Below, in pieces: positions 5,039 through 56,144 of a stretch of DNA of 64,000 nt. The position numbers and the translations under genes are program-made. The notes under the pieces were generated by a model. The model did not search any database. It was given only the letters and a program-made list of their open reading frames with translations, and was not told the DNA's origin. Source of the DNA: an uncultured Elusimicrobia bacterium (GTDB lineage Bacteria > Elusimicrobiota > Elusimicrobia > UBA1565 > UBA9628); NCBI GenBank assembly GCA_964600165.1, contig CAZRIP010000005.1, forward strand, positions 48 through 64,047. The letters are read 5' to 3'. Every line of letters begins with the position of its first letter. Positions within the stretch are counted from its first letter, which is position 1.

Positions 5039-6558
5039 AAAGAAGACTCGAGTCGGGAGCCCTCGTCTTCTGCGCCGTCTTCGCGGCGGCGCTGCTCGTC
5101 TACGGGCCGCTCTTCTTCGCGGCGGTCTTCGGAGACGACCCGCGCCTGCCGCATGACGTCCTGCGGGGCGTTCTCTCGACGCGGTATTTCGCCTTGACCG
5201 GGGAGGCGACCTATCAGCCGCTGGTCACGCTCCTCAACCACCTCACTCGCGGAGAGCCCGTCTTCTCCCGTCTGATTAGTATCCTCCTCCACGCGGTGAA
5301 CGCGCTGCTGCTGTGGGCGCTGGCGCGCCGCGCCGGCGTCGCTTCCAAAACCGCGCTCGCGGCGGCCGTGGCCTTCGCGGTCTTTCCGACGAACACGGAG
5401 ACCCTGGCCTTCTCGAGCTACAAGGGCCACGTGCTCGCCTTCGGCGCGGCCGAGGCCGCGGTCTTGTGCTGGGCGGCGATGCTCGAGTCCGCGGTTCCCG
5501 CGCCGTGGCTCGCCGGCGCGGCGGCGGCGCTGCTCTTCGGGCTTTTATGCAAAGAGTCGGCGCTCGTCGCGCTGCCGCTGTGCGCGGCGTGGTCGGTTTG
5601 CTTCGCGCGCGCGAAGCCGCGGAGACGTCAGTGGACGGGCGCGGCCGTCCTGGCGCTCGTCGCGTGGGCCTACCTCGTCTGGCGCTTCGGCGTCCTCGAG
5701 CCGGCCGACTTCGTCCGGCGCCCGATGCCCGGGCCGCTCGCCGTTCTCGGCTGGTATTTCAAGACGCTGCTTCTTCCCTATCCGCTTTGCCGCGAGCGCG
5801 TGTGGACGAGCGACACCGTCTGGGACGTGCTCGGGGCCGCGTATTTCGCGCTGCTTTGGGCCGCGCGCCGCAAGCCGCGCGCGCTTTTCGCCTCGCTTTG
5901 GATCGGCGCCTGCTGTCTTCCTTTCCTGAGGCTCGTGCCGTTCGCCGGCGACAACGCCGTGGCCGACCGCTTCGTCTACGGCGCCTCGGCGGGCTTCGCG
6001 CTGCTGGCGTCGCTGGCGCTGTCGCAGGGCCGCGGGCCGCTCGTTTTATACGGCCTGATCGCGCTGTGGGCGGGGGAGGGCGCGCGGCGCGACGTGCTCT
6101 ATACCTCGGCGCGCGCGTTCTGCGAGCAGACGGTCGCCTGCGCGCCGGATCATCCGCGCGCGCATGCGGCGCTCGCGCGGGAGATGATCGTCAGCGGAGA
6201 GTTCGAGCCGGGCAAGACCGAGGCGCTCAAGGCCCTCTCGTTGGACCCGAGGTCTCCCGGCGCTTACAATCTGCTGGGCGTATCCGAGTTCAATCTCGGC
6301 GACGCCGACGGAGCGCAGGACGCGCTCGACCACGCGCTCGTCTTCGATCCCGGCTCGGCCGAGGCGCGCAACAACATCGCCAACGTGCTGCTCGCGCGCG
6401 GGTTCGAGGACGAGGCGCTCGAAGACTACGAGATGGCCGCGCAGCTGCGGCCGGATTGGGACGCGCCGCGGCAGAAGGCGGAGGAATTACGCGCGAAGAT
6501 CGCGTCGGAGCCGAAGACCAGGACGCCGAGGCGCCGCCGCAGGCCTCGTCATCGCTGA
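5035..6558 (+). CDS. TPR-repeat-containing PMT/TMTC-like GT-C membrane glycosyltransferase (paralog 1)
   Basis: The ATG overlaps the upstream stop (ATGA). The N-terminal two thirds form a multi-pass membrane region with a loop YQPLVTLLNHLTRGE and a helix LLHAVNALLLWALARR. The C-terminus has TPR repeats. It is paralogous to 17210-18751. Confidence 0.7.
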   Translation: MKRRLESGALVFCAVFAAALLVYGPLFFAAVFGDDPRLPHDVLRGVLSTRYFALTGEATYQPLVTLLNHLTRGEPVFSRLISILLHAVNALLLWALARRAGVASKTALAAAVAFAVFPTNTETLAFSSYKGHVLAFGAAEAAVLCWAAMLESAVPAPWLAGAAAALLFGLLCKESALVALPLCAAWSVCFARAKPRRRQWTGAAVLALVAWAYLVWRFGVLEPADFVRRPMPGPLAVLGWYFKTLLLPYPLCRERVWTSDTVWDVLGAAYFALLWAARRKPRALFASLWIGACCLPFLRLVPFAGDNAVADRFVYGASAGFALLASLALSQGRGPLVLYGLIALWAGEGARRDVLYTSARAFCEQTVACAPDHPRAHAALAREMIVSGEFEPGKTEALKALSLDPRSPGAYNLLGVSEFNLGDADGAQDALDHALVFDPGSAEARNNIANVLLARGFEDEALEDYEMAAQLRPDWDAPRQKAEELRAKIASEPKTRTPRRRRRPRHR

Positions 6559-9834: not shown

Positions 9835-10917
9835 CTACGGCTGCGGAGGCTGCGCGCCCATGGTCACGAGCTGCTTGACCGTCCCGGGATCGTGGGCGAT
9901 CGCGCAGGCCTCGTTGAGGTCGACGAGGTTTTGCTTGATGAGGAAAGCGAGGTACTGGTCCATCGAGATCATCCCGAACTTGCTGCCGGCCTCGATGGCG
10001 GAGTAAAGCAGATGGGTCTTGCCGTCGCGGATGATGCTGCCGATGGCGGACGTCATGCGCATGAACTCCCGCGCGCAGACGCGGCCTTTGCCGTCCTTGC
10101 GCGGCAGCAAGGTCTGGCAGATGACGGCCTGCAGCACGGTCGAGACCTGGATGCGCACTTGCTGCTGCTGGTGCGCGGGGAAGACGTCGATGATGCGGTC
10201 GATGGTCGACGGCGCGTCCTGGGTGTGCAGCGTGCCGAAGCAGAGGTGCCCGGTCTCCGCGGCGGTGATGGCGAGCTGGATCGTCTCCAGGTCGCGCATC
10301 TCGCCGATCAAGATCACGTCGGGGTCTTGGCGCAAGCTGTGCTTGAGGGCCTCGGCGAAGGACTTGGTCTGCTGGCCGACCTCTCTCTGCAGAATGATCG
10401 AGTTTTTGTCTTCATACACGAATTCGATCGGGTCCTCGACGGTCAGGACGTGCTTCTGGTACTTCTGGTTGATGAGCTCGATGAGGCAGGCGAGCGTCGT
10501 CGACTTGCCGGAGCCCGTCGGGCCGGTCACGAGCACGAGCCCGCGCGGCAGATCGACCAAGTTGCGCATCGCCGGCATCAGGCCCAGCTCGTCCGGCGTC
10601 GGGATCCGCGACGAGATCGTGCGCAGCACGGCGGCCACGCCGAGCTTCTGCATGAACACGTTCACGCGAAAGCGCGAGACGCCGGAGAGCGCGATCGAGC
10701 AATCGAGCTCCCAGCGGTCCTCGAAGCGGGCGCGCTGGTCCTCGGTGAGGATCGAGTAGATGAGGTTCTTGCACTCATCGGCGGCGAGCTTCGTCGTGCC
10801 GGGGATCGGCTGGATGGCGCCGTTCAAGCGCACCATCGGCGGCTTGCCGATGACCAGATGAAGGTCCGACGCGCCCATTTGGGCGGTCGACTTCAGGATT
10901 TCAACGAGATCGGGCAT
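9835..10917 (-). CDS. pilT: type IV pilus twitching-motility (retraction) ATPase PilT
   Basis: Walker A GPTGSGKST, the Asp box, Walker B ILIGEMRD and the His box TLHT, with the typical PilT length and N-terminus. Confidence 0.9.
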   Translation of the reverse strand: MPDLVEILKSTAQMGASDLHLVIGKPPMVRLNGAIQPIPGTTKLAADECKNLIYSILTEDQRARFEDRWELDCSIALSGVSRFRVNVFMQKLGVAAVLRTISSRIPTPDELGLMPAMRNLVDLPRGLVLVTGPTGSGKSTTLACLIELINQKYQKHVLTVEDPIEFVYEDKNSIILQREVGQQTKSFAEALKHSLRQDPDVILIGEMRDLETIQLAITAAETGHLCFGTLHTQDAPSTIDRIIDVFPAHQQQQVRIQVSTVLQAVICQTLLPRKDGKGRVCAREFMRMTSAIGSIIRDGKTHLLYSAIEAGSKFGMISMDQYLAFLIKQNLVDLNEACAIAHDPGTVKQLVTMGAQPPQP

Positions 10918-12165: not shown

Positions 12166-13251
<1,086 letters not shown>

Positions 13252-45563: not shown

Positions 45564-46661
45564 CTACTGCTGCTTCGGCTGATTCTCGGGTCCGGGCAGT
45601 TGAGCCTTGAGCACGGGCGCCGCCGGCGCGGCCGGATGCTCGGCCAGGAGCTTCTCGGCGGCGCTTTCGTCGAACGTCTTCGCCATGACCGCCTTCTTGA
45701 CGGCCTCGGCGGCGATGCGCCGCGTCTCCTCGTCGCCCTTTTCAAAAGCGCGCTCGAAGATCGCCGCGCCGCGCTTGGCGAGGCCGGGACGGGCGCGGAG
45801 GATCTTGACGCCGCGGGTTAAAGCCGAGCCCTCGGCGGTCTCGATGTGCTTGTTGAGGAGAGCCGAGCTGATCCAGGGAAGCTTGACCGAATCTTCGATC
45901 AAGCCCGTTTGCTCGAGGCGCTCGAGAGCCGGGCCCATGAGAGCCGGGTCGCGGTAATCCTCGAGCGCGATCACGCAGGAGACGACGGTGGCGGGATCGC
46001 CCGTCGAGCGCATGAGCGCCAAGATCGGCTCGATCGCCTTCTTGCCGCCGGTGCGCCGCAGCGCGGCGACATAGATGGACGGCTCGATCTTGCCCGCGCC
46101 CGACGCCTGGAGCTTGAGGAAGACCGCCTTGCCGCCCACGCCTTCCGGCCGGCCGAGCTCGGAGGCGGCGGCGTCGCGCAGGTCCGACGGCCCCTCGTCG
46201 AGCGCCTTGAGCGCGAGCTCGCGGGCCGCGGGGCTCTTCGTGCGGCCGATCAGCAGTCTGCTCGCGCGGATCTTGAGCTGCCAGGTTTCCTTGGGCTCGC
46301 CGGTCGACTCATGGACGAGCGGCGCGATCGCCTCGCCCAGCGCGTCCGCGTTCTCCTTGCCGAGCGGGCTCTTGCCGTACTCCGGCCCGTCGAGCACGTC
46401 CATGAGCCCGCCGAGCGCGACGAGGCGGCTTTGCTCCTCGCCGTCCTTGACGCTCGGCAGGAAGGTTCCGACGACCTCGTCGGCCGAGACGGGCTGGGTC
46501 TCGGCCTGCGTCGCGGCTTGGCTCTGGGCTTCCTGCGCGGAGGGCGTTTGCTCGGGCCGCGGCGGGGACTTCTGCGGCGGCGCGTCGAGCATCATTTGGC
46601 CGATGCACGCGGCGGCGAGGACGACGAAGGTGCTGCCGACGATCACTTTGGCGCGTTTCAT
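45564..46661 (-). CDS. exported HEAT/PBS-lyase-like repeat protein
   Basis: Start assigned at MKRAKVIVGSTFVVLAAAC. Repeated helical units carry D/E-x-R-x-x-A-A signatures. Confidence 0.5.
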   Translation of the reverse strand: MKRAKVIVGSTFVVLAAACIGQMMLDAPPQKSPPRPEQTPSAQEAQSQAATQAETQPVSADEVVGTFLPSVKDGEEQSRLVALGGLMDVLDGPEYGKSPLGKENADALGEAIAPLVHESTGEPKETWQLKIRASRLLIGRTKSPAARELALKALDEGPSDLRDAAASELGRPEGVGGKAVFLKLQASGAGKIEPSIYVAALRRTGGKKAIEPILALMRSTGDPATVVSCVIALEDYRDPALMGPALERLEQTGLIEDSVKLPWISSALLNKHIETAEGSALTRGVKILRARPGLAKRGAAIFERAFEKGDEETRRIAAEAVKKAVMAKTFDESAAEKLLAEHPAAPAAPVLKAQLPGPENQPKQQ

Positions 46662-46757
46662 AAATCTTGTTCTCCGTGGCGGGGGCGGGCCTCTCGAGGG
46701 GCCCGGCGCCTGAGTCGGAATACCTAGGTGGGAGTGAAAACTTACAAACGATTCAAC

Positions 46758-47576
46758 AGCGGTGCCAGGCACTGAAGTGAATCGTTTGTTGAAAAGGAAG
46801 CGTGTCAGCGCGGCCGGCGGGAAAGAACGACGAGGCGGTTTGAGTCTTTCGTCAGGGTGAGGCCGTCGAGGGAGCCCCAGCGCCGGACCGGCCTGAGCCC
46901 GGCTTGCTTGAGTATCGTTGAAAGGCGGCGCCAATCGTACTGGCGAACCATGAGCATCGCGCGCGCGGGCGCTCGACCCTTACGGAGGATGGTCCATTCC
47001 GATTCGACTCGGGGGTCTCGTCCTTCGACGAGGCGGCTGTCCTCGAGAAGGTAGCTGCCGTCGCCGCGCCGCTGCCATTTCTTCGGCTGGAAGTGTCGGC
47101 GCAGCCAGGCCGCGTTCATGAGATCGATCAGAAATAGGCCTCCCGGTCGCAGCGCGTTGCGAACCTTGCGAAGCGTCCTCAGGTCGTCCCGCGGATCGGC
47201 GAAATAGCCGAAGCTCGTCCAAAGGTTGATGGCTGCGTCGAACTCGGCGTGGAACGGAAGATTGCGCATATCGCCGAGGCGGAAGGAGAGTCGAGGTCCG
47301 GCAAGGCGTTTCGCGGCGGCCAGGTATTCGGGAGTCGAATCGACGCCTAGAACTAAAGCGCCCTTGCGCGCGAGGGCGGCGCTGTGCCGTCCGGTCCCGC
47401 AACAAAGATCCAACACGCGCTGCCCGCGCCGCAGCCCGAGAGCGCGCCAAACGAAGGAAGCCTCTCGGGGAGCCGCCGCGATCGCCTCGGGCTGGCCGGG
47501 CGTGAATATTTCCTCTCGAAAGAATCGACGCCGCCAACTTTTCAATAAACGAGTCACTTTAGTGCCTGGCACCGCT
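46758..47576. mobile_element. putative transposase-less mobile insertion cassette: 36-bp terminal inverted repeats (33/36 identical) flanked by a 5-bp direct repeat TCAAC, carrying one SAM methyltransferase gene
   Basis: IR-L at 46758-46793 reads AGCGGTGCCAGGCACTGAAGTGAATCGTTTGTTGAA. The reverse complement of IR-R at 47541-47576 reads AGCGGTGCCAGGCACTAAAGTGACTCGTTTATTGAA. TCAAC sits at 46753-46757 and again at 47577-47581. Confidence 0.4.
46805..47572 (-). CDS. class I SAM-dependent methyltransferase (passenger of the IR-flanked cassette)
   Basis: SAM motif I VLDLCCGTGRHS and motif post-I LVLGVDS. The GTG start lies inside IR-R. Confidence 0.8.
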   Translation of the reverse strand: MPGTKVTRLLKSWRRRFFREEIFTPGQPEAIAAAPREASFVWRALGLRRGQRVLDLCCGTGRHSAALARKGALVLGVDSTPEYLAAAKRLAGPRLSFRLGDMRNLPFHAEFDAAINLWTSFGYFADPRDDLRTLRKVRNALRPGGLFLIDLMNAAWLRRHFQPKKWQRRGDGSYLLEDSRLVEGRDPRVESEWTILRKGRAPARAMLMVRQYDWRRLSTILKQAGLRPVRRWGSLDGLTLTKDSNRLVVLSRRPR

Positions 47577-47582
47577 TCAACA

Positions 47583-50500
47583 TCAGAACTGGAACGTGAG
47601 GGTGGTGCCGAATTGGTACGAGATGAAGTCTTCCTCCGGGAGGAACTTATGCCATTCGCGCGATAACGCGCCGTTGATCGTCATGCGCAGGTTCTTGGCC
47701 AGCTCGTAATCGGCGCTGGTGTTGAACGTGGCGAGCTTGAAGTTATCCGCCACCGTCACCGGCGAGGAGCGCAGCGCGAGGGACAGCGTCGTCGTCCAGA
47801 TGATCCGGTTCGAGAACAGGATCGTCTTGGTCGAGCCGGGCAGCAGCAGGCCGCGCGGCAGCGCGAGGTCGGCGCGGACGAGAACGCTGGGCGTGATGAC
47901 AGTGACGTTCTGCGAGTAGGTGCCGAAGCCGTCTTGGGTGGTGTCCTTCGAGTAGTCCACCTTGGGCGTGAAGCGGAACTTTTTTACGTCGAAGGTCGTT
48001 TGGACGGTCGCGTCTTGATGCCCGGTCGCTTGGGTGTTCGCGTCGACGAGCAGGTTCTTGTTGGTCGACGAGCGCTGGTTGAAGCTGATCAGGCTGTCGA
48101 AGCGCTTAAAAAGGATCGAGCGCAGGTCCGTGCCGAACGAGGAGTCGGTCAGGATCGACTGACCCTCGTTGTTCGTGCGGTGCGCGGAGTACTTGTAGTT
48201 CATCTGCGTGCTGTTCATCCACTTGAACGTGCCGAAGAGCTTCTCGAGCTGGCTGATGCTCGCGACGAGGTCCGGCAGCGTCGTGGAGACCGTGCGCGAT
48301 TGGGTGTCCGTCGCGTTCGTGCGTTGGATGCTTTCGACGAAGTTGTTCGAGATCGAGATCGTCTTGAGCGAGGCCCAACGCCCGCGCAGGTCGTACGCGT
48401 CGAGCGGCGACCAGCGCTGGGTCGAGTTGAACGTGTCGCGCAGGGTCTGCGTCTGCATTTGGGCCGCCGGCCCCTGCGCGTGGAGCGGCGTGCGGATCCA
48501 CAGCGCGCCCATCGTGTCGAGATCTTTTTCGACCTGATTCCAGACGTCGCCGTCTTGCAGCTGATAGCCGGAGACGATGTTGAGCGTGCGGAAGAGCTTC
48601 GTGCGCCTGGTGATCTCGCCGATGGTGATCGGCAGGCTGATCGAGCCGTTCGAGTTGCGGTTGACGGTCTTGATGTCGCCGACGTTGAAGACGTAGGTCG
48701 AGTTGCCGACCACGAAGGTCGAGATGTTGAGTATGTTGTTCTCTAGCACGTCGATCGAGTAGTTGACCTGGGGATTGAGCCAGGACAGCAGGCGATAGTT
48801 CGATGTAAAGCCTACGGTCTCGCTTTGGGACTTCGGATAGCGGCTGTCGAGCTCGACGCCCGAGGTGAGGTCGTTGCGGTGCTCGGTGACCTTGGTCAGC
48901 GAGTAGTTGGGATTGAAGGTCGAGCCGGTCCACGGGACGAAGGTCAGCCGCGCGCCGACGGTCTGCGTGAGCTCGTTGGTGTTGAAGTCGCCCGGCAACA
49001 GGCGCGACTCGAGCGAGTCGAAGGTGATGTCGTATTTCGAGTAGCTGTAGTTGAGGTCGACGGTCTTCGGCAGGTAGCGGCGCGTGATCGGGACGCCGTA
49101 CTGCAGCGTGCCCGAGTAGGTCTTGCGGTCGTCGGTCCGCGTGAGGAAATCGTAGTTGATCCGATTGCGCGCGTAGTTGAGGTTCAAGCGCGGATAGGCG
49201 CCCAGGCTGAAGTTGCCTTGGGCCGTGCCGGTGAAGTTGACGACCTTGCCCTGTTGGAGCAGGTTGACGCTGTTCGTGAGCCCGCCCGTCAGATTGGTGG
49301 CCGGCGTGTCGGTGACGATGCGCGAGACGTTGAAGGTCAGCGGGAAATACTGCAGCCTGGTGAAGTTGAGGAATCCCGTGTCTTGCTCGTTGTCCTGATT
49401 GAGCACCACGGAGGTCGGCGTCTGGAAGTTACGGTCGACGGAGCGGAATTTCCCGCCGAACGTGGCCCAGCCCGGCACCTCGAAAGTCGCCTCGAGCTTC
49501 TCGGCGTTGCCGACGCGCGGGAGCGGCTGGGCGACGTGGATCTCGTTGAGGTAGACGATGCCCGCGCTCTGGTTGTCGCCGGTGATGCTGTTGCCGTTGC
49601 CGCCGGACGTCGTGTCGGTCGTCTTGCGGACGCCGGCCACGATCTCGGAGACTTGCTGAAGGCTCGGCGTGCCTGAGCTGATGATCGTGGTGCCGGGCGT
49701 GCTGGCCTGCCAGGTATCGGCGACGGCGTTGTGTCCCGAGTCGTTCTGGTAGACCCTGATCTCGCGCCAGCCGACGTAGTTCAGCGGGACGTCGACCTCC
49801 CAGAAGTTGGTGTCGTTGCCGACGCGCAGGAAGAACGTGTGGTCCGTGCAGTTGATCGCGCCGTTGCTCCCGTTGGCGGGCGAGCACGTCGCGCCTTGAC
49901 TATTAGGCGCGTTGGAATAGAGCAGGAAGTTGAAATAGCGGTGCTGGCTGATGTCGATCGCCGTCGTGTATTGCCGCTTGGTCGTCACGACGGCCCCGAC
50001 GCCGTTGACGATCGTCATGCTGGAGAACGCGAGCTCGAGGGCCTGCTCCGAGACGTTCGTGGTGTTCGACTGCTTCTGGAGGTTGCTCAGGCTGCCGTAG
50101 AGGTCGTTGAAGACCTGCGTCGCGTCGCCGCCGGCGTTGTAGATCGGGGTGTAGGTCGGGTTGTCGACGTTGTTGATCGGCGTGACGGTCAGGTTCTCGG
50201 GGCCGACGGGGTTATTGTTGAGAGCCGGGTCGATGGGCTGGCCGTTGAGCCACGTGTTGCCGACCACCGAGATGTTGGCGAATTTGAGCTGTCCGGCGAC
50301 CGGGCTTCCCGCGTGGTGTCGTACGGAGACGCGCAGCTGCTTGATGTTCGTCCAGCGGCTGAGCGTCGCCGTCGAGATGGCGAGCGGGATCTGGAACGTG
50401 TACCAGTTCGTGCCGCCGCCGAAGTCGATGACGGTGTGGACCTTCTGGTCGGTGGTGGCGAAGAGCTGCGTGCTCGTCGGGTTGAAGCCGGTGATGTCGC

Positions 50501-53384
50501 CCGCGTAGCCGAAGTTGTTGCCGTTGCCGTCGTCTTGGTCGAGGCGCGCGTTGACGTTGAGATCCTCGCTGTCGAGGCGGCCGTTGTTGGCGCCGAAGAC
50601 CGTCGAGGGCGTCAGGGAGCCAGCCGGGTTGGTGTAGGTCCAGCCGACGTCCTTGGCCGGCGACAAGATGCCGGTGCAGTCCGTGTCCTCGGTCTTCGGG
50701 ACGTTGTTGACCGTGACGCCGTTGGCGCAGGTCAGCGTCGTGCCGCCCGTCGCGTCCGCGTCCTCGGAGATGCCTCCCAGGCGGAAGTTGATGTCGTTGC
50801 CGGAGACGTCGCCGAGCATCGTGATCTGTAGGATCGTGCGCTGCGAGAAGTCGTTGCCGGCTGACGAGAACGGGAAGACGATCGACTGCTCCTGCGAGGC
50901 CGCGTTCGAGAAGTCGTAGTTGAAGTCGAGCACCTGCTGCGGCTGGTTGTTCGTCGCGGGGGCGCTCGGGTTGATCTGCAAGGCCGGCACGTTCTCGCTC
51001 GTCCACTGCATGCGGGAGGAGTCGCTCGGATCTTGGCTGCCGGTGAACGACGTGCAGGGCGTGGCGGCGGAGCAGCCGGCGCCGCCGGGGTTCGAGGCGA
51101 TGAACCACGCGGAGGCCAAAGTCGAGGCGCCGTCCGACTGCTTGATCCCCTCCATGTTGTCGACGATGGCGAAGGCGTTGAGGTTCAAGTCTTGGCGGCT
51201 CTGGGCGAACTCCCCGCCGAGGAGCTTGACCTTGAACTTCTTGCCGATCTGGAAGTCCTGCCCGTGGGCGTCGAAGTCGTAGACGAGCAGGCTGCGGGAG
51301 AGCTCGGTGATCGAGGGCGTCGTCTGGGACTTGATCCCCGACTCATAAAGCAGGGTCGAGCCCACCTCGTAGTGCTTGCCCCATTCGTAGGACACGCGGG
51401 TGCCGAGCAGCGAGTCGTTGGTCGTCGCGCCGGCGAAGGGCGCCACCTCGTAGCTGATGTCGATCTCGGAGTTCGCGCGGATGCGGTCCTGGTTGAAGAA
51501 CGTCACGAAGCCGGCGTCGTAGTCGATGAAGTAGTCGACGTTGCGGTTGAGCTTGACGTTGTCGAGCAGCACGATCTCCGATTGAGGCACGAGGTTCGGC
51601 TCGAGGAAGAAGGTCTTGAAGCGGTAGTTGTACTCGACGTGGATGATCCGATTGGGGATCGGCGTCGGCGCGTAGATGTTCGGGTCGGGCGTCGAGGGCG
51701 AGCTGTTCGAGACCGAGAACGGCACCAGCAGGTTGAAAAGGCCGTTGGCGAAGTCGACGTTGATCGTGTCCGGATACTTCTGGATCGGGTTCAAGCCCGA
51801 GCCGACCTCGTTGCGGTTCTGGTCCAAGACCTTCAGGATGAAGTTGCCCCGGCCGTTGTCGCCCACGATCTGGGTCTGGCCGATGCTGTAGAAGGTCTTG
51901 AGCTCGCGGTTGTAGCCCACTTCGTCGAGCGTGCAGCTCGAGCACTCGATCGGCTGGTCGCCCGCCGTCTTGATCAGCTTGAAATTGCCGGTGCCGCCGC
52001 CGATGGTCGTCATCGAGGAAGTCTCGACGTCGACGTGCTGATTGGAATTGTCGATGTAGTCGACGGCGACGACGAACTGCGGCTGGAGCTGGTTGCGGAA
52101 GGTGATGATGCCGCGCACGTAGTCGATCGTGTAGTCGAGGCCCGCCTGCATCTGAGCGAACGTGCCCGTGAAGGTCGAGGTGTGCAGCTGCAGGTCGTCG
52201 GCCGTCAGCGCCACGTTGTTCGTGTTGACCAAGCCGGGCTGATTCTGCGAGAGGAAGACGCGCTCGCTGCCGACCTTGATCGGCAGGCGGCTCGGGTTGC
52301 CGAACGTCAGATCGTAATAAGTGCGGCGGACGTAGGACGTGTCCTGAAGGTCGATGGAGGCGAACTGCTGGTTGCCGAAGAACTGCTTCGACTTCGTCGT
52401 GCCCTTGGTGCGGCTGCCGATGAAGCTGCCCTTGAAGCCCTTGTACTTGATGTCGGCGCGGATGCCGAAGAGCTGCTTGTTGTACGAGACGAACTCGGTG
52501 GCGGGCAATGAGAGGTCGATGTCGCCGAAGCTGACGTTTTGGACGACCTCGTTGGGATCTCCGGTGTAGACGACGGAGATGTCCTGGTGGTTCTGCTTCG
52601 TGTCGTCGTAGTCGACGTTGACCGTGATCTTCGGGCCGACTTTGCCCTGCATGCGCAGCTGGAGCTGCTGGGTGATGTCGATGAGGTTGGTCGTCTGCGG
52701 GCGGCCGGAGGTGACCTGCGGGTTGAGGAACTTCTTCTCGGAGTAGGTCACGCCGAGGACCTTGCGGCCGGTCACCGAGAGGCTCGTGCCGTAGGTCGGC
52801 AGCTCGACTTCGGGCGGCGGCGGCTTGGGCGCCGTAGTCGAGGAGATCGAGACCGCCTCGCCGAGGAGGATCGGGATGATCTCGTTCTCGTTGGGCTCGC
52901 GGCCCTCGTCGACGTCGGTCTTCGCGTGCTCGTATTTGTCGAGCGTGTAGTGGAACTCTTGGGTCGACTCGGCGATCTCCCAGTCCAGGAACTCCGGGGT
53001 CTCGGAGGAGACGCCCGCGGCCACCTCGGTCGACTCCTGCTGCTCGAAGATGTGGTCCTTGTCCGTCCGGTCGAGAAGCAGGAACTTGCCCGAGTACGAC
53101 GGCATCAAGATCGGCACCGGCGGCTCGCTGGGCAGATTCTCCGGCGCGGCCGAAGGCTGGCTGGAAGGCTCCTCGGGCTGGGTCGATTCCTGCGGCGCCG
53201 GCGCGGGGGCCTCGGGCGCCTCGGGGGCCGGCTTTTGCGGGGTCTTCGACGGCTCCTGTTGGGGGGCGAAATCCGGGTCGTACGGCGTGGAAAATTGGGC
53301 GTAAGCCGGCACGTTCGCGGGCGCGAGCGTAACTAATAGTGCCAGCCAGAGACAAAACCGCCGATGGGCGCGCTGTAGATTCAA
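47583..53384 (-). CDS. giant (1933 aa) secreted protein, predicted outer-membrane beta-barrel (possibly SprA-like)
   Basis: TTG start. Signal peptide LWLALLVTLAPANVPAYA. Pro/Glu-rich linker. About 1700 aa rich in N/T/S/G/Q/Y with alternating hydrophobic patterns. The C-terminus TLTFQF ends in Phe. Confidence 0.75.
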   Translation of the reverse strand: MNLQRAHRRFCLWLALLVTLAPANVPAYAQFSTPYDPDFAPQQEPSKTPQKPAPEAPEAPAPAPQESTQPEEPSSQPSAAPENLPSEPPVPILMPSYSGKFLLLDRTDKDHIFEQQESTEVAAGVSSETPEFLDWEIAESTQEFHYTLDKYEHAKTDVDEGREPNENEIIPILLGEAVSISSTTAPKPPPPEVELPTYGTSLSVTGRKVLGVTYSEKKFLNPQVTSGRPQTTNLIDITQQLQLRMQGKVGPKITVNVDYDDTKQNHQDISVVYTGDPNEVVQNVSFGDIDLSLPATEFVSYNKQLFGIRADIKYKGFKGSFIGSRTKGTTKSKQFFGNQQFASIDLQDTSYVRRTYYDLTFGNPSRLPIKVGSERVFLSQNQPGLVNTNNVALTADDLQLHTSTFTGTFAQMQAGLDYTIDYVRGIITFRNQLQPQFVVAVDYIDNSNQHVDVETSSMTTIGGGTGNFKLIKTAGDQPIECSSCTLDEVGYNRELKTFYSIGQTQIVGDNGRGNFILKVLDQNRNEVGSGLNPIQKYPDTINVDFANGLFNLLVPFSVSNSSPSTPDPNIYAPTPIPNRIIHVEYNYRFKTFFLEPNLVPQSEIVLLDNVKLNRNVDYFIDYDAGFVTFFNQDRIRANSEIDISYEVAPFAGATTNDSLLGTRVSYEWGKHYEVGSTLLYESGIKSQTTPSITELSRSLLVYDFDAHGQDFQIGKKFKVKLLGGEFAQSRQDLNLNAFAIVDNMEGIKQSDGASTLASAWFIASNPGGAGCSAATPCTSFTGSQDPSDSSRMQWTSENVPALQINPSAPATNNQPQQVLDFNYDFSNAASQEQSIVFPFSSAGNDFSQRTILQITMLGDVSGNDINFRLGGISEDADATGGTTLTCANGVTVNNVPKTEDTDCTGILSPAKDVGWTYTNPAGSLTPSTVFGANNGRLDSEDLNVNARLDQDDGNGNNFGYAGDITGFNPTSTQLFATTDQKVHTVIDFGGGTNWYTFQIPLAISTATLSRWTNIKQLRVSVRHHAGSPVAGQLKFANISVVGNTWLNGQPIDPALNNNPVGPENLTVTPINNVDNPTYTPIYNAGGDATQVFNDLYGSLSNLQKQSNTTNVSEQALELAFSSMTIVNGVGAVVTTKRQYTTAIDISQHRYFNFLLYSNAPNSQGATCSPANGSNGAINCTDHTFFLRVGNDTNFWEVDVPLNYVGWREIRVYQNDSGHNAVADTWQASTPGTTIISSGTPSLQQVSEIVAGVRKTTDTTSGGNGNSITGDNQSAGIVYLNEIHVAQPLPRVGNAEKLEATFEVPGWATFGGKFRSVDRNFQTPTSVVLNQDNEQDTGFLNFTRLQYFPLTFNVSRIVTDTPATNLTGGLTNSVNLLQQGKVVNFTGTAQGNFSLGAYPRLNLNYARNRINYDFLTRTDDRKTYSGTLQYGVPITRRYLPKTVDLNYSYSKYDITFDSLESRLLPGDFNTNELTQTVGARLTFVPWTGSTFNPNYSLTKVTEHRNDLTSGVELDSRYPKSQSETVGFTSNYRLLSWLNPQVNYSIDVLENNILNISTFVVGNSTYVFNVGDIKTVNRNSNGSISLPITIGEITRRTKLFRTLNIVSGYQLQDGDVWNQVEKDLDTMGALWIRTPLHAQGPAAQMQTQTLRDTFNSTQRWSPLDAYDLRGRWASLKTISISNNFVESIQRTNATDTQSRTVSTTLPDLVASISQLEKLFGTFKWMNSTQMNYKYSAHRTNNEGQSILTDSSFGTDLRSILFKRFDSLISFNQRSSTNKNLLVDANTQATGHQDATVQTTFDVKKFRFTPKVDYSKDTTQDGFGTYSQNVTVITPSVLVRADLALPRGLLLPGSTKTILFSNRIIWTTTLSLALRSSPVTVADNFKLATFNTSADYELAKNLRMTINGALSREWHKFLPEEDFISYQFGTTLTFQF

Positions 53385-53467
53385 GCTGTCGTCGGTACTT
53401 CGCGCCCCCGGCGAGGCGCTTCGGCGGGCAGTTTAACAGGGGGGTATTACCCTGTCAAGACTTTGGA

Positions 53468-53538
53468 GCTCTATTAGTTAACGAATCCTTAATAGCGAAA
53501 GGCGGCCGCGCTATTAGGCAACGTTATTCTTAATAGCG
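53468..53538. repeat. two tandem AT-rich hairpin repeats (CTATTAG-N13/14-CTTAATAGCG) between the GT4 stop and the giant-OMP gene start
   Basis: Repeat 1 at 53471-53497 and repeat 2 at 53511-53538, each an imperfect palindrome with a 6-8 bp stem. A TTGACA hexamer (minus-strand orientation) lies at about 53453-53458. Confidence 0.45.
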
Positions 53539-54651
53539 TCACAGGGAGAGCGCGTCGTAGGCGTTCTGGTAGGACTCGATCATGCGCAGCAGCCCGAAGC
53601 GCTCGGCGACGGCCTTTTGGGCCGCGGCGCCCAGGCGCGCGCGCAGCGCGGCGTCGCCGGCGAGAGTCGCCAGAGCCTGGGCGAGCGCGGCCGAGTCTTT
53701 CGGCGGCACGAGCAGGCCGCTTTTCCCGTCGTCGACGACCTCGGGCACGCCGTCGACGTCGGAAGCGACGGGCGGCACGCCCAAGGCCATCGCCTCGAGC
53801 AGCGCGTTCGGCAGCCCTTCCCAAAACGAAGGCAGCGCGAAGACGTCGAAAGCCGAGAGCCAGGAGATCACGTCGTCGCGCTCGCCGAGCAGCCGGACGT
53901 GGTCTTGAAGGCCCCGGCGCCGGACTTGCGCCTCGAGCGCGGCGCGGCGCGGGCCGCCGCCGATGATCGCGCAGCGCGCCGGCAGGCGGCCCTTGATCTT
54001 GGCCATCGCGTCGATGAGCGTGCCGTGGCCTTTCTGGGCGTCCAGGCGCCCGACGCAGCCGATCAGCGCGTCGCCCGGCGCCAGCTTCAGCTCGAGGCGC
54101 TTCTGCGCGCGGTCAGCCTTCGAGACCGGCCAGTTCGCGACGTCGACGCCGTTGTAGATCGTGATGACTTTGTCCGGGGCGTAGCCCAGGCGCTTCAAGA
54201 GATAGCCGCGGCTCGCCTCGCACTCGGCGATCAGGAGGTCGTCGGCCGACTTGAGCGCGCGGTCGACGAAGAGGGTCAAGACCGAGCGCGTGCGGTAGCT
54301 CACGCGCGGCGAGCTCACGAGCTTGAATTTGACCCGGCAGCGGCGCTTGGCCAGGCGCGCGAGCTGGATCGCCTGGTACATGACGGCGTGGACGATGTCC
54401 GGCTTCCGGCTGTCGATGATCCGGGCGAGCGCGTCGACGTGCTTGAGCGTCGGTCGTCCCTTGAGCTCGAGGCTCTCTACCTTGAAGCCGGCCTGGGTCA
54501 GCTTGTGGGCGTAATGACCCGCCGGCTTGAGGCTGACGACGTCGCAGACCTCGAAGCGCTTGGGGTCGAGGAGCGTCGCCAGCGAGTACAGCGTCTTCTC
54601 GGCGCCCCCGAGCGTCGTCGAGGTGCCGACGAAGAGGACGCGGGTCAGTAC
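53539..54651 (-). CDS. family 4 glycosyltransferase (start codon unresolved)
   Basis: GT-B motifs EGLPNALLEAMALGVPPVASDVDGVPEVV (EX7E). The N-terminus LTRVLFVGTSTTLGGAEK has no in-frame ATG/GTG/TTG after the upstream stop; a possible CTG at the CTGA overlap is noted. Confidence 0.75.
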   Translation of the reverse strand, partial: VLTRVLFVGTSTTLGGAEKTLYSLATLLDPKRFEVCDVVSLKPAGHYAHKLTQAGFKVESLELKGRPTLKHVDALARIIDSRKPDIVHAVMYQAIQLARLAKRRCRVKFKLVSSPRVSYRTRSVLTLFVDRALKSADDLLIAECEASRGYLLKRLGYAPDKVITIYNGVDVANWPVSKADRAQKRLELKLAPGDALIGCVGRLDAQKGHGTLIDAMAKIKGRLPARCAIIGGGPRRAALEAQVRRRGLQDHVRLLGERDDVISWLSAFDVFALPSFWEGLPNALLEAMALGVPPVASDVDGVPEVVDDGKSGLLVPPKDSAALAQALATLAGDAALRARLGAAAQKAVAERFGLLRMIESYQNAYDALSL

Positions 54652-56144
54652 GCCCCCCGCGCCGACACCATGGCCGGGACGGTTTTCAGGATGATCTCGA
54701 GGTCGAGGCCGAGCGACCAATGCTCGATGTAGAAGAGATCGAGCGAGAAGCGCTGCTCGCTCGAGACGTCCGAGCGGCCCGAGACCTGCCAGAGCCCGGT
54801 GATGCCGGGCAGGATGTTCATGCGCTTCTTGGCCGTCGCGCCGAACTCCTTTTCGAGCGCCTCGAGCTCGCCCGTGGTCAGAGCGAGCGGGCGCGGGCCG
54901 ACGACGCTCATCTCGCCGCGGATCACGTTCAAAAACTGCGGGAACTCGTCGAGCGAGAAGCGCCGCAGCCATTTGCCGACGCGGGTCACGCGCGGGTCGC
55001 TCTTGGCCTTGAAGAACGCTCCTTTCTGGTCGTTCAAGCCCTGCACGGCGGAGATCTTCGACTCGGCGTTGGCGACCATCGTGCGGAACTTGAAAGCCTC
55101 GAAGACCTTGCCGCGCAGGCCGTAGCGCTTCTGCTTGTAGAGCACGGGCCCGTCGCTGTCGAGCTTGATGAGCGCCGCGACGATCAGAAACGGAATACCC
55201 GTTACCGCCAGCACCAGTCCCGCGAAGGCGAGGTCGAAAATCCTTTTCGCCAGAAAGTTCGTGCGCGTCATGGACGTGTGCTGGATCCGGTAGGCGGGCA
55301 GCCCCAGGCTGCGGTCCATCTGGACCTCGCCTAGGCGGATCTCGAGAAGGTCCGGCACCATCTTGAAGCCGACGCCTGCGGCGTCGCAGACCTCGGCCGC
55401 GGCGAGGATCCGCTCGTGGCCGAGCGACGAGCGCAAGAGGATCATCTCGAAGTAGCGGCGCTCGGAGAACGCGCGCTCGAGCTCATGGGGCGCCGGCAGC
55501 TCCGCGAACTCGCGGATGAAGGCGCCGGGGTGCCGAACGCTGATGCGCTGCTTGATCTCGTCGGCGACGGCTCCGGTCCCGACGATAACGACCGGCAGCG
55601 CGGCCTCGAGAGTCGAGAGGAAAGAGTCGACCGCCAAGACGAACGCCTGGCTCACGCAGAGGAACGCGCAGCCCAGCGGCATCGCCAGGACGAGCATCAT
55701 GCGCGAGTATTCGAGGCGAGAGTAAACATAGGCCGCGAGCAGCGCCGCTCCCGCGCCCATGATCGAGCCCTTGACGATCTGCAAGAAGCGGTCGGCCGCG
55801 CCCATCCACGGATCGCTGTAGAGGCGGCACGAGTACCAGAAGATGCCGAGCCAGAGGGGCACGATGGCGTAGAGCAGCTTGTGGTAGAGCTCCCAACTCG
55901 GGACGTTGCCGACGATGGGGAACCGAACGATCACCGCGTCCAAGCCGAAGCGCAGCAGGTACGCGGCGTAGTAGGCGAGCGCCACGGCGGCGGCGTCGAG
56001 CGTCAAGTGAAGCGTCGTGCGCAGCGCGTGGCGCAGCCACGGGGGCAGCGCTCCGGCCGTGGCGGGGACGAGCCGGGGAGCCGACGGCGCGGCCTTGGCC
56101 TGGATGCGGTGGCCCATGAGGCCGATTATATCAATTTGGCCCAA
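54645..56144 (-). CDS. polyprenyl-phosphate hexose-1-phosphate transferase (WbaP/WcaJ-like initiating sugar transferase)
   Basis: Five TM helices and a C-terminal bacterial sugar transferase domain, KFRTM...DEFPQFLNVIRGEMSVVGPRP. Confidence 0.85.
   Translation of the reverse strand: MGQIDIIGLMGHRIQAKAAPSAPRLVPATAGALPPWLRHALRTTLHLTLDAAAVALAYYAAYLLRFGLDAVIVRFPIVGNVPSWELYHKLLYAIVPLWLGIFWYSCRLYSDPWMGAADRFLQIVKGSIMGAGAALLAAYVYSRLEYSRMMLVLAMPLGCAFLCVSQAFVLAVDSFLSTLEAALPVVIVGTGAVADEIKQRISVRHPGAFIREFAELPAPHELERAFSERRYFEMILLRSSLGHERILAAAEVCDAAGVGFKMVPDLLEIRLGEVQMDRSLGLPAYRIQHTSMTRTNFLAKRIFDLAFAGLVLAVTGIPFLIVAALIKLDSDGPVLYKQKRYGLRGKVFEAFKFRTMVANAESKISAVQGLNDQKGAFFKAKSDPRVTRVGKWLRRFSLDEFPQFLNVIRGEMSVVGPRPLALTTGELEALEKEFGATAKKRMNILPGITGLWQVSGRSDVSSEQRFSLDLFYIEHWSLGLDLEIILKTVPAMVSARGAY

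Follow-up and report, generated by a model that had tools for sequence, protein, structure and literature searches.

A putative repeat doublet brackets a methyltransferase gene in an Elusimicrobiota cell-envelope locus

Repeat arms around a methyltransferase gene

We analysed a 64,000-nucleotide stretch of DNA from an uncultured Elusimicrobia bacterium (contig CAZRIP010000005.1, positions 48 to 64,047; hereafter, the window), in which a gene for a class I S-adenosylmethionine (SAM) methyltransferase lies between two inverted repeats. The window represents core chromosomal DNA of an Elusimicrobiota genome, with genes for arginyl-tRNA synthetase, a penicillin-binding protein (PBP), PilT-type ATPases and many glycan and envelope functions, and the methyltransferase gene stands in it between a giant gene for a SprA/Sov-like outer-membrane protein and a gene for a secreted HEAT-repeat-like protein (Table 1). 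A repeat search of the window placed the two arms at 46758-46796 and 47538-47576, each 39 nucleotides long, with 36 of the 39 positions (92%) complementary. They bound a segment of 819 base pairs (46758-47576) and leave a spacer of 741 nucleotides between them. At up to three mismatches the 64 kb contain exactly these two copies of the repeat, 100 dinucleotide shuffles of the window gave zero, and the inverted repeat is far beyond chance. GC content is 46-49% in the repeat arms, 65% in the methyltransferase cargo and 66% in the genome. Both arms carry the palindromic core GTGCC-A/T-GGCAC, whose central base is A in the left arm and T in the right one, and the repeat ends are of the type AGCGGTGCC...

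Together with an extension (E) on its outer side, the left arm (U) makes up a hairpin-forming unit, here called H, which occupies the spacer between the methyltransferase and HEAT genes. In this unit 46744-46755 pairs with 46778-46789 in a stem of 12 base pairs, the DNA fold has z = -4.3 on the plus and -3.5 on the minus strand, and the predicted structure is a two-tier hairpin. The right arm (U'), here called S, is a 39-nucleotide subset of H that sits at the junction of the giant gene and the methyltransferase gene, within the first methyltransferase codons, and does not fold (z = +1.1 and +0.6).

An earlier note on this DNA, made from the letters alone, had interpreted the segment as a candidate mobile insertion cassette lacking a transposase, and much of its description of the locus held. 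The inverted repeats, given there as 36 base pairs with 33 identities, are real and only their length needs correcting; the methyltransferase is indeed the sole credible gene inside the 819 base pairs by Pfam; the left arm and its flank do form a hairpin; and the pentamer TCAAC does stand directly outside each repeat, flush with both arms. Likewise, the absence of a transposase near the segment was confirmed, as a Pfam scan of the 72 open reading frames (ORFs) of the window matched no transposase, recombinase or Y1 transposase of the REP-associated tyrosine transposase (RAYT) type. Two distances had to be revised. The segment had been put 4 nucleotides downstream of the giant gene stop codon, which at 47585-47583 is 6 nucleotides from the repeat and 1 nucleotide from TCAAC; and the right repeat, said to hold the GTG start with the first four codons, does hold the start and extends over 11-12 codons.

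All plausible methyltransferase starts (GTG 47572, GTG 47557 and TTG 47545) lie inside the right arm. GTG 47557 is the start used in two database calls (P0001 and P0287, beginning M/VTRLLKSW), and the alternative GTG 47572 would give a product of 255 amino acids. The conserved methyltransferase core begins at W13, precisely where the right arm ends on its inner side, and the residues that precede it are variable. As read on the minus strand, the junction is TTC-TGA-TG-TTGAA-GCGG...TTTA-TTGAA-AAG-T-TGG. Deletion of the 35 nucleotides 47575-47541 restores in frame ATG-TTG-AAA-AGT-TGG, that is MLKSWRRRFF..., beginning at the ATG that overlaps the giant gene stop, and this restored sequence resembles the N-termini of relatives (VKDW, SLKDW). 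Its reconstructed 5' end and the repeat unit have an 8-nucleotide tail, TTGAAAAG, in common. The right TCAAC, which reads GTTGA within ATG-TTG-AAG, is probably a remnant of this ancestral 5' end. On the contig of one relative (P0252) the giant protein is 92% identical over its last 211 residues and also ends in TLTFQF, and a co-directional gene of at least 233 amino acids has a start that overlaps the giant gene stop by the final base of that codon. We take this junction as supporting evidence for an insertion of S, not as proof.

Two observations on databases and assemblies concern the repeat itself. One NCBI record (P0286, window 46805-47269) holds only a 154-amino-acid product starting at M102, and the 5' end of the gene, disrupted by the repeat, evidently caused difficulty in gene calling. 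In addition, two independent assemblies break at the repeat, ENA contig L002 at 46797, the first cargo base beside the left arm, and Logan contig L004 at 46767, the central A of GTGCC-A-GGCAC; these breaks could reflect heterogeneity in the population, such as repeat-free alleles, or a hairpin-related loss of coverage.

Table 1. Features at the methyltransferase locus (positions of the window)
Feature	Position	Strand	Remarks
HEAT-repeat-like protein gene	45564..46661	-	secreted, 365 aa, downstream of the methyltransferase gene; HEAT_2 6.6e-05
H unit	46744..46796	.	left arm U (46758-46796) + 14-nt outer extension E (46744-46757, ACAAACGATTCAAC); hairpin-forming, about 51-53 nt
Left TCAAC	46753..46757	+	belongs to extension E of H; inside the 51-nt block identical at the second locus
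Methyltransferase gene	46805..47557	-	class I SAM methyltransferase, 250 aa from GTG 47557; Methyltransf_25 2.5e-19, Methyltransf_31, Methyltransf_11
S unit	47538..47576	.	right arm U', without outer extension or local hairpin; 36/39 match to left arm; carries the methyltransferase start codons
TTGAA direct repeat	47541..47580	-	copies at 47580-47576 and 47545-47541 enclose 30 nt of the S unit; from the junction sequence
Nine-codon upstream ORF	47554..47583	-	MLKRCQALK; ATG overlaps giant gene stop (TGATG), stop overlaps methyltransferase GTG 47557 (GTGA)
Right TCAAC	47577..47581	+	reads GTTGA on the - strand, within ATG-TTG-AAG
Giant outer-membrane protein gene	47583..53384	-	SprA/Sov-like, up to 1933 aa; TIGR04189 9.2e-43, under family cut-off; C-terminus TLTFQF-stop

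The gene in relatives and a second doublet

Judged by its homologues, the methyltransferase represents a conserved Elusimicrobiota family: the 1033 matches are 52-69% identical and come mostly from Elusimicrobiota, the named ones all from Elusimicrobia, and the best non-self match reaches 69%. The window is collinear with the related contigs L005 and L007 over the genes for PBP, PPC, TPR, ECF sigma, nucleotidyltransferase, HEAT, methyltransferase, the giant protein, GT4 and Bac_transf. The giant gene orthologues of these two contigs are 61-63% identical, and a HEAT gene orthologue with 43% identity adjoins the methyltransferase gene in L005, where the order is HEAT(-), methyltransferase(+), a 333-amino-acid gene(-) and giant(-). 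In L007 the methyltransferase(+) is followed by two small genes and giant(-), and in L010 methyltransferase(+) and giant(-) are convergent with 7 nucleotides between their stops. The contig of the homologue with 69% identity (P0002) carries a long upstream gene, 2 nucleotides, the methyltransferase gene with its product starting VKDW, 29 nucleotides and the next gene, all co-directional. No repeats were found around the methyltransferase gene in the relatives searched, L005, L007 and L010 included, with nhmmer of related loci among the scans, nor was an empty site without the gene, as a cassette insertion predicts, seen in the relatives examined. From these comparisons the methyltransferase gene is a resident, and probably vertically inherited, member of an Elusimicrobiota cell-envelope locus. 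A 15-nucleotide AT-rich inverted repeat (13 of 15 positions) flanks the L007 orthologue at 9988-10002 and 10834-10848; considered as a related element it was rejected, as its upstream arm is promoter-like, with a TATAAT-like box just before the ATG, and the repeat is probably due to chance.

The specificity of the methyltransferase was considered from its closest families. It matched generic class I domains only and no nucleic-acid or resistance methyltransferase family above cut-off; its best NCBIfam matches, all far under their cut-offs, are small-molecule enzymes, and the closest solved structures are uncharacterised or small-molecule methyltransferases. Nothing in these matches points to the DNA- or RNA-modifying or resistance methyltransferase that the earlier note had considered possible. 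Since its linkage to SprA-like and glycan genes is conserved, we infer that its substrate may be envelope-related.

A scan of JGI metagenomes with 27 nucleotides of the repeat (25 specified bases) returned one contig, L009, in which an inverted pair (1070-1109 and 1345-1384; 40 nucleotides, 93%) surrounds 235 nucleotides encoding a 69-amino-acid protein. The H ends of the two loci are identical at 51 of 51 positions (window 46796-46746, L009 1346-1396). An 11.3-kb version of this second locus, L012, derives from the ENA sample that also yielded L002, a 100%-identical copy of the window locus. The tetranucleotide correlation of L012 with the window is r = 0.987, where chunks of the window itself give 0.966-0.995 and relatives 0.82-0.96; the second doublet is probably in the same genome as the window. 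The 69-amino-acid protein, with 148 matches, is again a member of a conserved Elusimicrobiota family. Its gene has its customary neighbours, namely Mpo1-like, cold-shock and HMA genes, and L018, L019 and L020, which have the same neighbourhood, contain no repeats around it. By these gene orders both bracketed genes are resident genes.

The two doublets share their organization. Each consists of one H end and one S end, with TTGAARAG tails facing the cargo at both loci (2/2); the H ends fold, and the S ends neither fold nor carry the extension. Compared with H, three positions differ in each S end, and an A at repeat position 31 is common to both S ends. The H ends follow stop codons, that of the methyltransferase gene in the window and that of an M13 peptidase gene in L012, and the S ends stand in tight junctions, between giant gene stop and methyltransferase gene in the window and between the stop of the 69-amino-acid gene and the Mpo1 start in L012. 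In the repeat-free L019 the 69-amino-acid gene and the Mpo1 gene overlap as ATGA. In L009 the pair is flanked by TTCAA on one side and GTTGA on the other, which do not make a direct repeat, and no target duplication is consistent across the doublets. Importantly for the window, the left TCAAC falls within the 51-nucleotide block that is identical at L009, and it is therefore repeat sequence and not derived from the target.

These results bear on the remaining claims made for the segment before. TCAAC had been read as a target-site duplication, which the position of its left copy inside the H block and the lack of a direct repeat at L009 contradict. The methyltransferase gene had been taken for a passenger inserted as a unit bounded by terminal inverted repeats, whereas relatives carry it beside the same giant and HEAT genes without repeats; the note had itself pointed to a methyltransferase at the same place in relatives without repeats as a finding that would count against insertion, and this is the arrangement in the P0002 contig, L005, L007 and L010. 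That the repeats belong to a dispersed family is supported, inasmuch as the same pair brackets another single gene (L009/L012). Copies flanking a transposase, for which a search had been recommended, were found neither in reference genomes nor in JGI metagenomes, viral contigs or plasmids; within the window's own genome this search covered the 64 kb. The individual scans were as follows. Among 185,579 reference genomes the terminal 22 nucleotides of the repeat have a single match, inside a gene and due to chance, a 22-nucleotide exact core match in a Pseudomonadota metagenome-assembled genome (L001 3283-3304) that lies within a coding region and has unrelated flanks. Viral contigs scanned with 22-27-nucleotide core patterns of the repeat arm gave none, plasmid BLAST with the repeat gave nothing relevant, and no Rfam family matched. 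There are no solo units in about 75 kb (window and second locus). A genome-wide family of repetitive extragenic palindromes (REPs) was also rejected, there being just two units in the 64 kb at up to three mismatches and none by nhmmer in the related loci.

As a separate observation on the second locus, L020 has a perfect 12-base-pair hairpin, TAAACAAGGGTGTCCTGACACCCTTGTTTAC, at 6234-6262, between the convergent 69-amino-acid and EamA genes, which is loosely like the H unit (AAAC...GGTG.C...CAC...GTTT). Moreover, across the repeat-free L005, L007, L010, L018, L019 and L020 the methyltransferase gene and the 69-amino-acid gene can each be found either way round beside unchanged neighbours, and from these gene orders single-gene inversions seem frequent at the two loci in Elusimicrobiota.

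Origin of the doublets and rival explanations

On balance, we consider it probable, though far from certain, that the methyltransferase gene is a resident gene bracketed in place by a doublet of a short AT-rich dispersed repeat present in this lineage only and resembling REPINs and miniature inverted-repeat transposable elements (MITEs). The two loci constitute a small family of non-autonomous repeat doublets, in which the same H and S pair also brackets a second resident gene. In such a scheme the units would have been added in situ, H being the primary element, mobilised by an enzyme encoded elsewhere. S would be the partner end of H, or else would have been copied locally, in inverted orientation, from part of it. 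At the methyltransferase locus the S unit would be an insertion of about 35 nucleotides that broke the original ATG overlapping the upstream stop, and a repeat-free allele would be expected to show the junction TTCTGATGTTGAAAAGTTGGCGG. Translation would then probably proceed by a relay, from the overlap of the giant gene stop with the ATG through the nine-codon ORF and the GTGA overlap to the methyltransferase. As a consequence, 39-base-pair inverted repeats flank the gene, and these may pair in the mRNA or support inversion or excision.

Several facts weigh against this account. Only two doublets are known in all, and no mobilising enzyme was found on scanning the 64-kb window. The two closest repeat-free junctions, on the P0002 and P0252 contigs, are known by their gene boundaries. 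The identity of the H ends, compared with S ends differing at three positions, requires selection or homogenisation of H, and the A shared at position 31 of the S ends somewhat favours a two-ended element over independent copies. Template switching, by which S would arise as a local inverted partial copy of H, fits in that S is a subset of H and that the 8-nucleotide tail recurs in the reconstructed methyltransferase 5' end, but poorly explains identical H ends with diverged S ends. Nor does any target-duplication model fit all four units. When the duplication patterns expected of whole-cassette insertion, replicative inversion and independent insertions were compared, replicative intramolecular transposition, which would produce the inverted pair along with an inversion of the gene, was rejected because the expected copy outside one unit with its reverse complement inside the other is absent, and two independent unit insertions followed by recombination because the flanks do not fit. 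Duplications at the level of the unit (TTGAA at S, GAAAA at H) are inconsistent over the four units and look like the unit's own TTCAA...TTGAA ends. Finally, the flush TCAAC pair has an a priori chance of about 1 in 1000, and we can account for it only in part; what it comes down to is a single base that differs within a TTSAA pentamer.

If, instead, U-methyltransferase-U' were a true mobile cassette, it would be a non-autonomous unit moved in trans by a DDE transposase, for example a Tn3-like one, and inserted at TCAAC between the giant and HEAT genes. The 39-base-pair terminal inverted repeats with their flush 5-nucleotide direct repeat, the AT-rich ends, the same ends around different cargo at the second locus and the two conserved end types, with A at position 31 in both S, recalling a transposon's left and right termini, are what such an element would show, and transposase-less cassettes with 5-base-pair duplications are known (PMC4337579). 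However, the cargo is at its ancestral position, where relatives have it without repeats, and its GC content equals that of the genome; the conserved H unit includes the left TCAAC, and the second locus has no duplication; the start remnant ATG-TTG-AAG lies outside the S end, and the 35-nucleotide deletion restores the reading frame; and the reference genomes yielded a single chance match to the terminal 22 nucleotides. Tn3-family ends measure about 38 base pairs, carry a GGGG tip and generate a 5-base-pair duplication. At the methyltransferase locus the length and the 5-nucleotide repeat agree with this, while the tip is AGCGG and not the consensus GGGG, and BLAST found no plasmid-borne elements similar to the repeat ends. 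We regard a cassette as unlikely. We are equally doubtful of a more novel reading, in which a trans-acting enzyme installs or uses paired 39-base-pair sites around resident single genes and so turns them into excisable, invertible or mobilisable units, which would amount to the genesis of gene cassettes.

A programmed switch, with a recombinase encoded elsewhere flipping the methyltransferase gene and the 69-amino-acid gene and silencing them by uncoupling from the upstream gene, would account for inverted pairs that bracket exactly one gene with the same site at both loci, as in the regulons of global invertases, and for the palindromic core; methyltransferase and giant genes are convergent in L005, L007 and L010, and the 69-amino-acid ORF is reversed in L020 and L018. 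Yet one orientation was found in all four assemblies of the methyltransferase locus and all six distinct assemblies of the second, the 64 kb hold no recombinase, and identical sites around resident genes are left unexplained. The closest relatives, moreover, have the present orientation without repeats, and with the start remnant outside the S end the gene would already have been co-directional when the unit arrived; on these two grounds a repeat-linked inversion was rejected, and we assign the switch a low probability. Slightly less credible still is an RNA-level element, in which the arms on one mRNA would form a 39-base-pair stem that encloses the cistron and hides the methyltransferase start, for RNase III or translational control, with the H hairpin as the competing structure. 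Both doublets are within strings of co-directional genes, the methyltransferase start codons are inside the S arm, the H end has a local hairpin as an alternative structure, and the minimum-energy fold of the 881-nucleotide sense RNA pairs the two arms, but this pairing is a trivial consequence of their complementarity. Compensatory changes in the stem were looked for and gave no signal among too few differences: G-U pairs account for 0 of 3 mismatches in the window (sense strand) and 2 of 3 at L009, with no covariation signal. The element has no Rfam match, and the dispersal of an identical 51-nucleotide unit would go unexplained; an RNA stem is compatible with a repeat doublet around a resident gene as a secondary function. 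That independent REP-like single units happen to flank one gene is very improbable in our judgement: the units are short, hairpin-forming and at gene boundaries, as this would have it, and yet the only two in 64 kb are inverted around one gene, the second locus is arranged alike and solo units are lacking.

Known systems and the surrounding genes

Among described systems, REPINs are moved by a single-copy RAYT and pair two REP units in inverted orientation around a non-conserved spacer, every unit being an imperfect palindrome with a centre that shows which way it points (PMC3337134). The doublets are similar in that an inverted pair is the organising unit at both loci (2/2), the repeat is an imperfect palindrome with an orientation-marking central base, the spacer sequence is not conserved, and the element is non-autonomous and needs no target duplication. 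They differ in that a complete resident gene fills the spacer (235 or 741 nucleotides, against about 70-110), the units have 39-53 nucleotides instead of about 16-25, and the doublet is asymmetric, with a hairpin and a non-hairpin end. With gene-containing spacers of this length, neither doublet has the short spacer, of tens to about 110 nucleotides, by which a REPIN folds as one hairpin. A REP family comprises tens to hundreds of copies in a genome that also has a RAYT gene; the window has no RAYT, and the roughly 75 kb of genome covered contain two doublets and no Y1 transposase. The MITEs of the Correia/NEMIS and ERIC types are compact elements of 100-150 base pairs with adjacent ends and a TA duplication. 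Like our repeats they are small, AT-rich inverted-repeat elements at gene boundaries whose RNA hairpins can change translation starts or mRNA processing, but a gene stands between the two ends of ours. Invertons also have inverted repeats of tens of base pairs flanking less than 1 kb, and the same repeat may serve more than one locus, but the segment here is a whole coding sequence and not a promoter, no second orientation appears in the assemblies, and there is no invertase nearby.

Mobile insertion cassettes (MIC231; TnXax1-type, PMC4337579) resemble the arrangement in placing a gene between inverted repeats of less than 100 base pairs without an internal transposase, in having different genes between the same ends and, at the methyltransferase locus, in the flush 5-nucleotide direct repeat. 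In contrast to them, the cargo here is ancestral in position, the duplication is not general and one copy of it is repeat sequence, and no cognate insertion sequence (IS) or transposon with these ends was found, a Tn3-type tip being absent as well. The dif modules of Acinetobacter plasmids (PMC6449649, PMC12907356) are likewise single genes or small sets bounded by short recombination sites, with varied cargo and neither transposase nor target duplication. However, the repeat has no recognisable XerC/XerD-type 11-6-11 site, it is in the chromosomal core and not among plasmid accessory genes, and its cargo has not been seen in differing contexts. An integron attC site was rejected: ATTCAAC at 46751-57 fits R'' (RYYYAAC), and GTTGAAA at 46788-94 only nearly fits R' (GTTRRRY), the spacing is 4 versus 15 nucleotides, the stable fold is in another register, the units are inverted and not direct, and there is no integrase in the window. 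IS200/IS605 and Xer-site readings fail because motifs or geometry do not fit.

Should the doublets be active substrates, they would show how a chromosomal gene comes by termini that turn it into a cassette or a switch, and the birth of a cassette is a question that integron cassettes, mobile insertion cassettes and dif modules still pose alike. If a trans-acting enzyme did act on such paired sites, they would represent a new kind of non-autonomous element with a host gene as its 'spacer'. Read conservatively, they are a repeat family of an uncultivated phylum that is tolerated within the first codons of a gene, with translational coupling apparently re-created through the nine-codon relay ORF. 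In practice, annotators should not call a mobile cassette from terminal repeats and a flush 5-nucleotide repeat alone.

Beyond the doublet, the SprA/Sov-like giant gene heads a glycan-gene run at 47583-63351, with genes for GT4, Bac_transf, Wzy_C, GT4, NeuB and a B12-radical SAM protein, in which no component of type IX secretion was noted besides the SprA/Sov-like gene itself. Elsewhere in the window there are three PilT/T2SSE-type ATPase paralogues, at 9835-10917(-), 12166-13251(-) and 34474-35640(+), two of which flank a gene for a cyclic-nucleotide-binding protein.

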